Below, in pieces: positions 13,641 to 47,221 of a stretch of 64,000 bases of DNA (position 1 is the stretch's first letter; the number at the start of each line of letters is the position of its first letter). The notes below the pieces were generated by a model. That model searched no databases, was not told the DNA's origin, and saw nothing but the letters and a program-made list of their open reading frames with translations. Made by a program: the position numbers and the translations under genes. The DNA comes from Octopus vulgaris (taxonomy: Eukaryota), in assembly GCA_951406725.2 (NCBI GenBank), contig OX597830.1, forward strand, positions 51,770,001 to 51,834,000, in the 5' to 3' direction.

Positions 13641-16080
13641 TATAATCTTCCGGTGCGAATGGTTTTTTTTTTTTTATACGGCGCCGTTTTTACAATACTG
13701 GAAATAATAATAATTATATTTTTATATAAGATTATAAAACTTATGGCGATCACAGTGCAATGACTAAGAAAAATAATCTAATAAATGGGGCATATAAGCC
13801 CCCGACAGAAAAAAGAAGTCTTTCGTATCCGCTATATGTATGTATATATATAAGAATGCCATATTAATATGGCGATAACAATTAATTTATATATATATAT
13901 ATAAATTTAAAGTGATTGCAAGGCATAACTATGCGGAAACAGCATCGACCTTTTTAGAAATAGGTGCTAAATTATTAATATAACCACCGGAAGGCATCAA
14001 ATAGCAGAAAAACAACAGTAGGGGAAGAAACGGATAAAGATTCAAGATATTAAAAAAGCATACCATTAAAAATACGCTCTTGTATTAAATGGGTGAAGGT
14101 AAAGATATATTTTACCATTAATTTATATTACAAATATGAAAATGGAGAAACACATTAGTTGGTTTATCAGCTTTAGGATATTAGAATGTTGTCTTATTTA
14201 ATTAACAAAACTACAACCATAATAACATACATATATACGGTATAAAATTAAATAAATTTAAGATAAGAATACAAATAGTTATTTTTAAAAATATAAATTG
14301 TTAGAATCTTTAAAATCACTTAATCATGCCGTGTTGTTTGTGTGTCTTTTTAGGACGTTAAATAAATGACTAAACTTAAAATAGTACTTGGTTGGATTAA
14401 TCTTTTGTACGGTGGTTATAGGATGGATAAATAATAAAAATGATAGCAGTATACGCCAATAGGTTGTGGTCAAAGAAGGAGAAAAGATACAATAAGGAGT
14501 TAGAGTAATCGTAATAGTATTTGATAATTGTTTCTAATACTAAATAATAATATGTATCATAATAAAGTGCTAATCGATTAAATGTAATTTTTTACTTACT
14601 ACTAGGTGTTTCATCCTATCCACCTATTGTCCAAAGTGAGATAGGCCAAGGTCCAGCGCACGCTATAATTGGGCAGTTCAAATTTGAAACAAAAGACCAG
14701 CTATTGCGACCGTTGACACGGGGTAAGCTAAATAAATGAATGGAAGAATGATATATGCTATAAGGGACCCGAAATCGCTTAAAGCAGTGTAAACTAAAAG
14801 TACAATATAATACAATAAGTAAGACCAATACTATTATTAAAATTTAGAGAAATACCGATTTGGACATTTGGGAATTTAGTCGGTTGATGAGAAGTGGTCA
14901 AAAAGCTTTTGAAATCATAAAATAAGTGTGAAAATCATTAAAAGAGAATGAAAAGGATTTTTGCTTTGGACAATTAAGGTTGAATAAGAATGGTTTAGGG
15001 GAATTAATAACTAGGGTAAGTGGCCTAAATTAGAAGTTTACAAGGCTACCAATCACTCTGTTGATTAACTAGCCAGTGCACCTGATCAATGAGGTAACTA
15101 TTCAATCAAACAACTAATTAACTAAAGAATCTATAAATCGATCATCCTAGTTATCAATTAAATAAGTTAATGTATATATCTCTAATTAATCAGTTAATGA
15201 AAACAAATTGAAATACTTGCAAATTATTTTCAGGGATACAAGCACTTATTACAATTTGCTCCTGCAAACATACTTAAATAAATTCACAATAAAGTGTGTG
15301 CACGTATGCACACACTCACATAAATATAAATATATATGTGTATGTACATACACAGGTATGCACCCTCACATACATTTATTAAAAATTACTACGATTACAC
15401 TAACTCCTTATTGTATCTTTGCTCCTTCTTTGACCAAACCTATTGGCGTATACTGCTATCATTTTTATTATTTATCCATCCTATGCACCCCGTACAAAGG
15501 AATTACCCAACCAAGTACTATTTTAAGCTTAATCATTTACTTAACGTCCTAAAGAGACACACAAACAGCACGGTATCATTATAAACATATCCAATTTTTC
15601 CTTTTATCCCTTGACCCTTCTTTTTATTATTTCTTTATTTATTACACTAATGAATCTCCATGTTTAAGATCGGTTTCATTACCAAATATGATAAATATCT
15701 TTAGCATATGAATGTCAATACCACACAACATGGGAAGCAGAAACAGCAATTAGATTGGATGCAATCTTTTTTTAATGAATTAATAAATAATAATTGATGT
15801 GATACAATTGTTGTTCATCAGTTATATGTCCATTTTCTGATTTCTTTATATTCTGATTCCCCATAAACTCATGTTTATCCTTGTCTATACCTATAATTTA
15901 TGAGAATAATATGCTTGCATATGTATGCCCATGCTTAAGTATAAGTAATATACCGGTAGTATATTGGATACCCTTTTCCCTTAGATGGCTGTCTTAACCT
16001 CTAACATATATATATATTGACACACACAAACACACACACTCACATATATTTGAATATATACATATATATATATATATATA

Positions 16081-19966: not shown

Positions 19967-20380
19967 GACTGCCACGTTAAGTTGACAGTATACAACTGCT
20001 CTATCGTTCCACTACTGCTTATATCTCTCAGAGATATTTAGAAATTTAATATTTCTATTTTTGGTGATCAGTGAATATACGTAACTGAAAATATATATGT
20101 TTACAAAGCCTAGACATGTATCTTCAGATTGCAGACCATTGCTACTCCAGACTGATGACGAGAAAGACTCAGAAACATGGTTGCAGGCCTAGCTGTTGGG
20201 GATGCTTGTCTCCTCTTTGTAAACATAAGGACACAGGAAATGTGTCAAAGCCGACAAGAAGCGTTGATGCTTCCGAGGGCTAAATAGCGTGGTGTGATTC
20301 TCTTTATGGGACTGTCACGTTAAGTTGACAGTATATACTGTAACTGCTCTATCGTTCCACCACTGCTTATATCTCCCAGA
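19967..20380 (+). mobile_element. Retrozyme-like unit 1: 343-bp period with ~66-bp terminal direct repeat and degenerate hammerhead
   Basis: 19967-20032 repeated at 20310-20380; CTGATGA-CGAG-AAAGA-CTCA-GAAAC-ATG-GTT at 20152-20182; homologous to 46825-47221. Confidence 0.7.
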
Positions 20381-46824: not shown

Positions 46825-47221
46825 GGTCAGCCATATTAAGATGGCTAGTATACTTTACGTTGTCGAGCGCTTAGTGTTTACATCTCGCTCAGAGATTTAT
46901 TATTGCTTTCAGACCGTTTTTCGAAATCAGTGACAGTGGTTACTGAAAAAACATTAAATAGATATACGCAAACAGGTCTCTCTTATCGAAAACCCGTGAT
47001 TAGCGTGTGTTGACAAGAGACAATAATCTCGAAACTGCAGTCCATGCGTATCACTTAGGTTTTCGAGAGGGGATGACTTCCCTTTGCGAATATCATTAAA
47101 GGGCACAGGATTGTGTCTAAAGCCAGCTGGAGACGATGATCTCCTGGGGCTAAGAAGCTACACTAACACCCCCACCCCTAGTGGTTAGCCATATTAAGAT
47201 GACTAGTATACTTTACCTTAT
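46825..47221 (+). mobile_element. Retrozyme-like unit 2: 358-bp period with 39-bp terminal direct repeat and intact hammerhead
   Basis: 46825-46863 repeated at 47183-47221; hammerhead at 46996-47054; homologous to 19967-20380. Confidence 0.78.
46996..47054 (+). ncRNA. Type I hammerhead ribozyme, U3-A8 core variant
   Basis: GTGAT-TA-GCGTGTG / TTGACAA / GAGA-CAATAA-TCTC / GAAAC-TGCA-GTC^ / CATGCGT-ATCAC; predicted cleavage after 47042. Confidence 0.8.

Follow-up and report, generated by a model that had tools for sequence, protein, structure and literature searches.

A 64,000-nt stretch of Octopus vulgaris DNA (the window) carries members of a superfamily of ~350-nt hammerhead repeats, or retrozymes, that are likely to be non-autonomous Penelope-like elements (PLEs), with a predicted promoter of the U1/U2 type and with the reverse transcriptase (RT)-endonuclease of a PLE acting in trans, an overall reading that we regard as probable. 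The retrozyme itself is ordinary; what is new is the mapped two-primer anatomy of its insertions, the likely snRNA promoter and the LINEs that target its +1 position. Coordinates given without a locus name are those of the window, and all the features described lie on its + strand.

Two diverged families in the window and many copies in the genome

The family A copy (46825..47221) is a single arm of 1.1 units, made up of 46825-47182 and a 37-39 nt repeat (period 358), with (TA)n on its 5' side and its end at the short 3' site described below. The family B copy (19967..20380) contains 1.2 units, 19967-20309 plus a repeat of ~66 nt, and is at most ~90% identical to other copies; its period is 343, compared with a unit near 350 in other family B copies, and its 3' end is non-standard, at unit ~60-66. 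A third family (C) is represented by a 38-nt fragment (13851..13888) with the H5 hairpin and the short end, amid TA repeats. An earlier reading of the window made from its letters (the sequence-only reading) had the coordinates and periods of the first two stretches right, and all of the motifs it named are present in both, in the order it gave. The terminal repeats of the window copies are partial tandem units, not LTRs, and no LTR, PBS or PPT was found in the units (PBS and PPT judged by eye). Repeat finders run on the window gave output dominated by microsatellites.

The A and B units are homologous, the local alignment score being 165, whereas 300 shuffles averaged 46 and never exceeded 79, which bears out the suggestion that they form one diverged group; they are two related families within a larger superfamily. 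DNA searches gave 3,684 first-look candidates for A and 2,930 for B, and 40 were scored for each family. A pattern common to both families had 2,045 exact matches compared with 1 for the reversed control, the matches listed being of B type, and an A-specific 27-mer had 997 compared with 0, so that the further copies for which the sequence-only reading had advised a search number at least 2,000 in the genome. Among the loci examined at least four families could be distinguished: A, B (with several subfamilies), C and D. The unit is short, non-coding, tandem or partially tandem and present in many copies, as is characteristic of non-LTR retrozymes (150-450 bp), and the copy counts, together with the covariation described below, support the original proposal of a non-autonomous, structure-conserved, high-copy retrozyme family. 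Contigs from four presumed-RNA runs match family A; these contigs carry no information on start, level or circles.

The hammerhead is conserved across the superfamily

Copy A has an intact type I hammerhead (47004..47048) in which stem I (47004-09/47043-48) encloses the core TTGACAA (47010-16), a stem II of 4 bp (47017-20/47027-30), GAAA (47031-34) and the palindrome ACTGCAGT (47034-41), which forms stem/loop III; U3-A8 replaces C3-G8, and the predicted cut falls after 47042, where the sequence-only reading had put it. In copy B the core CTGATGA..GAAA (20152..20182) is followed by a deletion of 6-7 nt spanning U16.1/C17 and the first bases of stem I, and so the cleavage site is missing from this copy; relatives of B keep it. 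The idea of a shared hammerhead core was thus correct for A as an intact ribozyme, but the A core is not CTGANGA and the site in B is deleted. With Rfam neither stretch gave a hammerhead match, even with E relaxed to 10, and for the whole window only microsatellite-driven matches were seen among the 150 of 274 listed.

A type I core with stems I-III is found family-wide in each unit, with covariation between C3-G8 and U3-A8. In 48 cores taken from the 60 best loci, positions 3 and 8 were T-A in 24/25 A cores and C-G in 21/23 B cores, and loop III was palindromic in 22/25 and 18/23 respectively, the B palindromes occurring in three forms. Both the U3-A8 core variant and the palindromic loop 3 are described for the minimal hammerheads of PLEs in PMC4209133, and their combination here fits the dimeric PLE-type hammerheads of that account.

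Covariation supports a hairpin domain closed by a long-range helix

Downstream of the hammerhead, copy A contains the 3' arm of an extended stem I (47058-66) with a GGGGA/TCCCT hairpin (47058..47083), then the conserved hairpins H3 (GGCACA/TGTGTC) and H4 (AGCC..GGAGA/TCTCC..GGCT) at 47102..47151, and finally the 5' arm of a long-range helix, hairpin H5 and the short end point, at which the copy A insertion stops (47160..47216). The upstream repeat holds another H5, with its TTAAG loop, together with the short insertion end point or predicted RT start (unit 26-42; 46828..46858); next come the 3' arm of the helix, which spans the tail, and the ATCTC..GAGAT hairpin with the long insertion end point (unit 74-89; 46882..46908). 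In copy B, H3 and H4 lie at 20229..20281 and H5 with the short-end region at 20311..20340.

The structure was examined in 16 representatives, one for each 90% cluster of 99 distinct segments. For the 33 pairs of the named structure 92.4% of cells were paired, and two-sided change was seen in 21/33, a count that is inflated by sequence relatedness; none of 500 shuffles reached 21/33, and slid controls paired at 24-44%. One pair of H5 held in only 5/16 representatives. The earlier remark that several stems differ in sequence and still pair is therefore upheld. Segments from the predicted start onward folded better than shuffles (z -2.7 to -3.0).

The long-range helix, which the sequence-only reading did not include, joins the region before H5 to the tail. 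Its arms are ACAGTAA/TTACTGT in A, GC(A/G)GTGGTG/CACCAC(T/C)G(C/T) in B and G(A/G)CAGC/GCTG(T/C)C in C, and pairing was 97% across 28 copies of family A and 91% across 49 of family B. Copy A itself departs from its family norm by a compensated double change, TTAGTGT (46871..46877) facing ACACTAA (47160-47166). These data support a domain of H3 to H5 closed by the long-range helix. Since the two insertion end points flank the tail that closes this domain, the extra hairpins are likely to serve in RT recruitment, one of the functions that had been proposed for them.

Insertions have the anatomy of Penelope-like elements

The first listed matches of an A-specific motif, after six duplicate loci had been dropped, provided 64 loci with 115 arms. 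Ends of the arms were concentrated at two fixed sites ~48 nt apart, which together accounted for 92/115 (47 at unit 26-42, the short site, and 45 at unit 74-89, the long site); the remaining 23 were elsewhere, many of them being alignment breaks near the unit boundary. At 43/64 loci arms were present on both strands as head-to-head pairs. Exactly one long and one short end was found at 25 loci, and exactly two long or two short ends at none. A target duplication of at least 8 bp was present at 16 of the 18 long-plus-short loci that were not flagged as microsatellite (mode 12; three of the 16 are TA runs), compared with 6 of 306 mismatched pairs used as a control. Family B has the same two ends, near 37-39 and 90-97.

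Two alternative 3' ends (the tail), 5' truncation, an inverted partner and partial tandems are thus all present. Inverted partners and partial tandems are given as PLE hallmarks in PMC8557442, and PMC11167929 traces the PLE tail to the use of two start sites by the RT, each DNA strand being nicked and extended. This anatomy leads us to view the units as non-autonomous PLE derivatives (non-LTR retrozymes) that are likely to be spread by a PLE enzyme supplied in trans. The sequence-only reading had named Penelope-like elements as background but had overlooked that the insertions themselves are of Penelope type.

The same features would be expected if the units were merely 5'-truncated pLTRs of an autonomous PLE with no amplification of their own, since two-end tails, inversions and partial tandems also occur in autonomous PLEs (PMC8557442). 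However, long arms enter a further unit (up to 1.76 units) and never an RT-GIY-YIG frame, and in the loci obtained from searches other than those for PLEs no PLE ORF was found that runs through its end into a unit of like orientation; those that came near to this were insertions into PLE remnants. We consider the pLTR explanation quite improbable.

Arms longer than one unit numbered 13/115, and 42/115 had a 5' end upstream of the predicted +1, which together point to read-through multimers or circles as templates, in agreement with the earlier suggestion of copying from a circular or multimeric template. A route in which the repeats multiply chiefly as circular RNAs and depend on PLE enzymes for integration alone would fit the longer-than-unit arms and the strong structural selection, and mussel and coral retrozymes are described as forming abundant circles (PMC7229834). 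On the other hand, arms of more than 1.8 units are rare, longer-than-unit arms are accounted for just as well by read-through of tandem loci, and the main template of an anole PLE is described as uncleaved RNA (PMC11167929), so that we think the circular route unlikely. The 5' ends of arms were distributed over the unit and showed no clear concentration at the cut (unit 218; 9/115 at 214-222).

Search for the partner PLE

Three PLE families with GIY-YIG-type frames were sampled, and in none of them is the terminal repeat homologous to A, B or C; a 781-aa Neptune-like family, a 717-aa family and the third family were each rejected as the partner on account of their unrelated terminal repeats. 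The hairpin-domain model gave no match in the repeats of sampled PLEs (81 loci), and its one match outside the window was a family C unit. PLE fragments adjoining a LINE (L360) and a family C unit (L416) proved to be cases of insertion into a remnant. In 2 of 160 loci the third PLE family adjoins an A arm, head to head in L027 and with one inserted inside the other in L451, and these junctions are a weak lead to the partner. The L027 arrangement (690-1884), in which the PLE is 5'-truncated, is duplicated at six places and is possibly a mixed-template insertion. As a separate observation, L067 and L072 belong to young autonomous PLE families with many open frames of 781 aa and 717 aa; these families carry hammerhead-like motifs of their own, one with a U3-A8 core.

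The units carry a likely snRNA-type promoter

The motif ATCA[GT][TC][GC] was present at -56..-61 in 30/30 U1 loci and 21/30 U2 loci, and among the remaining U2 loci were four that carry an insertion at +1, as well as variants of the motif and probable pseudogenes. Many U1/U2 loci are tandem copies, and the weight matrix was built from 11 promoter types. The best matrix site fell at -54..-64 in 21/23 anchored A units and in only 7/25 B units, where the same element is mostly at -53 from an ATCT anchor. In copy A the predicted PSE is an ATCAGTG element at -59 (46926..46945) that matches the U1/U2 upstream element, and the predicted +1 (ATCG) lies at the 5' base of the extended stem I (46985..47001), near unit position 161 in family A; the equivalent stretch is duplicated on LINE insertion in other copies. 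The PSE-like element also forms the CAGTGA/TTACTG hairpin, and copy B has both element and hairpin at 20067..20088. The sequence-only reading had identified this hairpin correctly as a motif and had missed its overlap with a snRNA-promoter-like element.

In retrozymes generally the left edge of the LINE duplication was preceded, at a distance of 53-62 nt, by ATCAGTG (ACCAGTG or ACAAGTG in some families) in 35/38 rows, as counted by a script that required the motif 44-72 nt upstream and with two spurious rows among the 35. The motif is short: five sites in the window score at least 12.2, two of them being those of copies A and B, and the PSE score was reached by 2-13 of 300 shuffles. The case therefore rests on position and on conservation, the element being kept in all families examined, and suggests that the units likely carry a promoter of the U1/U2-snRNA type.

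The 3' box of U1/U2 genes is ..A(C/T)AGAC; A units have CAGAC after the ATCTC..GAGAT hairpin, and no U1-type 3' box was evident in B units. A U6-type Pol III promoter was rejected, since likely true U6 genes have ATGC(A/T)AAT..GCC near -75 and by eye this element is absent from the units. Some further observations were made on the snRNA loci. A hairpin, (A)TCTCC..GGAGAT, that resembles the retrozyme ATCTC..GAGAT hairpin follows U2 genes (L297-L326) and is absent after U1; a variant U6 tandem cluster (L285-L289, period ~1.1-1.4 kb) has its own upstream element; and several other U6 matches are pseudogene-like and followed by a common short repeat.

A LINE and an ORF1-only cassette insert at the predicted +1

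The retrozyme +1 is also an insertion site for an autonomous LINE, a feature of the units that the sequence-only reading, right in calling them retrozymes, had overlooked. The element, which from its domain layout we take to be of Tx1/L1 type, has an ORF1 with a CCHC knuckle, an ORF2 with endonuclease (APE), RT and zf-RVT domains, and a target-site duplication (TSD). Exact matches to its 3' end (n = 25) were at U2 +1 (5), at the starts of A/D-type retrozymes (19) or elsewhere (1), so that 24/25 were at a U2 or retrozyme +1, compared with a target-specificity threshold of >20% of flanks. Full-length LINEs at U2 +1 duplicate nt 1-14 and also occur in tandem (U2 cluster, C3; L358:3066-8640 and L359:1685-7260). 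A diverged relative (79%) starts at the predicted start of a B-type unit (L116:1741-2882).

At two B-type loci, where cassettes were first found, an insert of ~1.65 kb carries a single frame for a protein of 443-463 aa with a CCHC knuckle, without ORF2, and has a LINE-type 3' end and a TSD. The ORF1 of the LINE is 26% identical to this protein (E 1e-30), and judged by sequence the cassette is a HAL1-like ORF1-only derivative of a LINE. A word-index search found no homologs of similar length, and an exhaustive one found 401 unnamed relatives; the protein lies near ZCCHC3-type RNA-binding domains by Atlas, which we take as a lead only. Between diverged open frames (8 frames, first 245 codons) dN/dS was 0.06-0.15, indicating that the ORF is under purifying selection.

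All 90 exact matches to the 3' end of one subgroup of cassettes were classified. At 68 of these a retrozyme start follows: in 53 the cassette adjoins a retrozyme directly, at the base of hammerhead stem I, and in 15 no more than the initial ~15-20 nt of a retrozyme start come next, in most cases with another cassette after them. The other 22 are elsewhere, one of them at the +1 of a U2 gene. Clear duplications were mostly of 13-17 bp and host-specific. A tree of 67 cassettes required at least 14 changes of host and was clustered by host (shuffled mean 27), which argues for repeated independent insertions and, in addition, for joint amplification or a preference among subfamilies. Several composites break off within the cassette and lack a duplication, one of them having an inverted arm, suggesting that these were copied by the PLE enzyme.

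Two alternative accounts of these composites were considered. Units of ~2 kb containing the ORF could be ancestral, with 350-nt units as deletion derivatives; the purifying selection on the ORF (dN/dS 0.06-0.15) would suit such an origin, as would the fact that composites are bounded by retrozyme units and that some look PLE-copied. However, the cassette ends in a LINE-type 3' end of its own, its duplications are specific to the host, cassette-TSD-cassette arrays exist, non-retrozyme sites and U2 are also occupied, and at least 14 host changes would be needed on the cassette tree. The duplications and arrays largely refute a coding retrozyme ancestor, which we reject as highly improbable.

The second account concerns the targeting itself, which could reflect a sequence preference of the endonuclease, with the PSE match incidental or the dead relic of a captured U2 promoter. 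The U2 +1 (ATCGCTTCTCGG) resembles A-type starts (ATCGAAAACCGG and ATCGCTACCTGG), with ATCG....YGG in common; a LINE-type 3' end was found at +1 in 0/30 U1 loci and 4/30 U2 loci; off-target sites often begin A(T/A)C; and cassette clades cluster by host. Yet B and C starts are little like U2 and are hit at the same distance from the element (the 35/38 rows at 53-62 nt), near-identical cassettes occur in three host families, and the PSE-like element is kept across all the families examined. We give sequence preference an appreciable chance, rather less than even. A general targeting of TATA stretches was rejected, as it fits two off-target sites only.

Several loci outside retrozymes are of interest in their own right. 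In L136/L234 a CCAAT and then a TATAAAA box precede a cassette, the box by ~32 nt, and the insertion is possibly at an ordinary Pol II start. A related ORF1-only subgroup with another 3' end forms head-to-tail arrays outside retrozymes (L153, L156, L158, L159; period ~1.8 kb, ~98-99% identical), the L158 array lying downstream of a TATA-like stretch; the protein of this array-forming element had 13,295 first-look candidates in the genome.

Discussion

The cycle that we propose would begin with Pol II, which is predicted to start at the base of stem I, ~58 nt beyond the PSE-like ATCAGTG, and to read into the next unit. A PLE protein may then bind the conserved H3-H5 domain closed by the long-range helix and nick both strands of AT-rich DNA ~12 bp apart, one cDNA being primed at the short site and the other at the long site, after which the 5'-truncated cDNAs would join head to head; for this two-cDNA step the product anatomy comes from genomic copies and the enzymology by analogy from work on anole Poseidon. 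In multimeric RNA the hammerhead, whose loop 3 is palindromic, would be expected to cleave as a dimer, and unit-length circles could result. The Tx1/L1-type LINE and its ORF1-only relative are found inserted at the same +1, with the first ~13-17 nt duplicated and the hammerhead left intact, and may sometimes be carried along by the PLE enzyme.

Taken further, the data can be read as three tiers, in which retrozymes with a borrowed snRNA promoter are moved by Penelope via a docking domain, and a LINE lineage with its ORF1-only offshoot homes to snRNA-type starts, those of U2 as well as those of retrozymes, by promoter position and not by sequence alone. We put this forward tentatively, with rather less than an even chance of being right. 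If it is true, retrozymes become ~2-kb protein-coding, hammerhead-flanked units that ride on Penelope machinery, and the docking domain sets two priming sites, one for each DNA strand.

How PLEs recognise their RNA and complete insertion is an open question in the field, and a minimal template of 350 nt with a covarying domain, two start sites and a rule for the product makes the two-primer model directly testable. The promoter points to how animal retrozymes may be transcribed and would add an invertebrate to what is known from the newt, and the possibility that a LINE recognises transcription starts by their position bears on the targeting of retrotransposons in general.

The sequence-only reading had called the family possibly uncharacterised in cephalopods. 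The retrozyme class is already published, and so are mollusc retrozymes of similar size, those of mussels having repeats of 350-390 bp (Cervera and de la Pena 2020, PMC7229834). A search of open papers found no report of octopus retrozymes; Repbase, Dfam, subscription papers and supplements may hold these families unannotated. The main text of an octopus repeat annotation does not contain the word 'ribozyme', and in a squid genome paper 235 hammerhead matches are listed but not analysed. Among open papers no report was found of a PSE in invertebrate retrozymes or of LINEs at U2 +1.

The octopus repeats share with the metazoan non-LTR retrozymes of PMC7229834 their unit size, type I hammerhead, non-coding nature, thousands of copies and partial tandems. 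They differ in being mostly dispersed two-arm inverted insertions of at most 1.8 units and not long arrays, and in having a conserved hairpin domain and two end points mapped. That retrozymes are non-autonomous PLEs has already been proposed (bioRxiv 10.64898/2026.07.22.740005), where the link is made by pLTR homology in Xenopus, whereas here no homologous pLTR was found in the three PLE families sampled and the link is made by the anatomy of the insertions. The octopus units resemble the Anolis Poseidon PAc element (Frangieh 2024, PMC11167929) in their AT-rich targets, their two adjacent predicted RT starts and the likely nicking and extension of both strands; their tail is ~48-55 nt compared with 30-40 in the anole, the unit is non-coding, and the long-plus-short pairing and ~12-bp duplication were counted in genomic copies. 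The one precedent for a snRNA-type promoter in a hammerhead repeat, newt satellite 2 (Coats, Zhang, Epstein 1994, as cited in PMC2220036), where the Pol II promoter is internal, is an amphibian tandem satellite, in contrast to the dispersed invertebrate family described here, for which the promoter is predicted only. Finally, target-specific Tx1 LINEs (Keno, Tx1-Mar; PMC4494074, PMC4640811) and ORF1-only HAL1 elements (PMC5753468) are known, and the octopus elements have in common with them APE and RT domains, a U2 or transposon target, tandems with one TSD and an ORF1-only derivative. Keno and Utopia are described as inserting before U2 nt 39 (PMC4640811), whereas the present LINE duplicates U2 nt 1-14 and also occupies the equivalent position in retrozymes.
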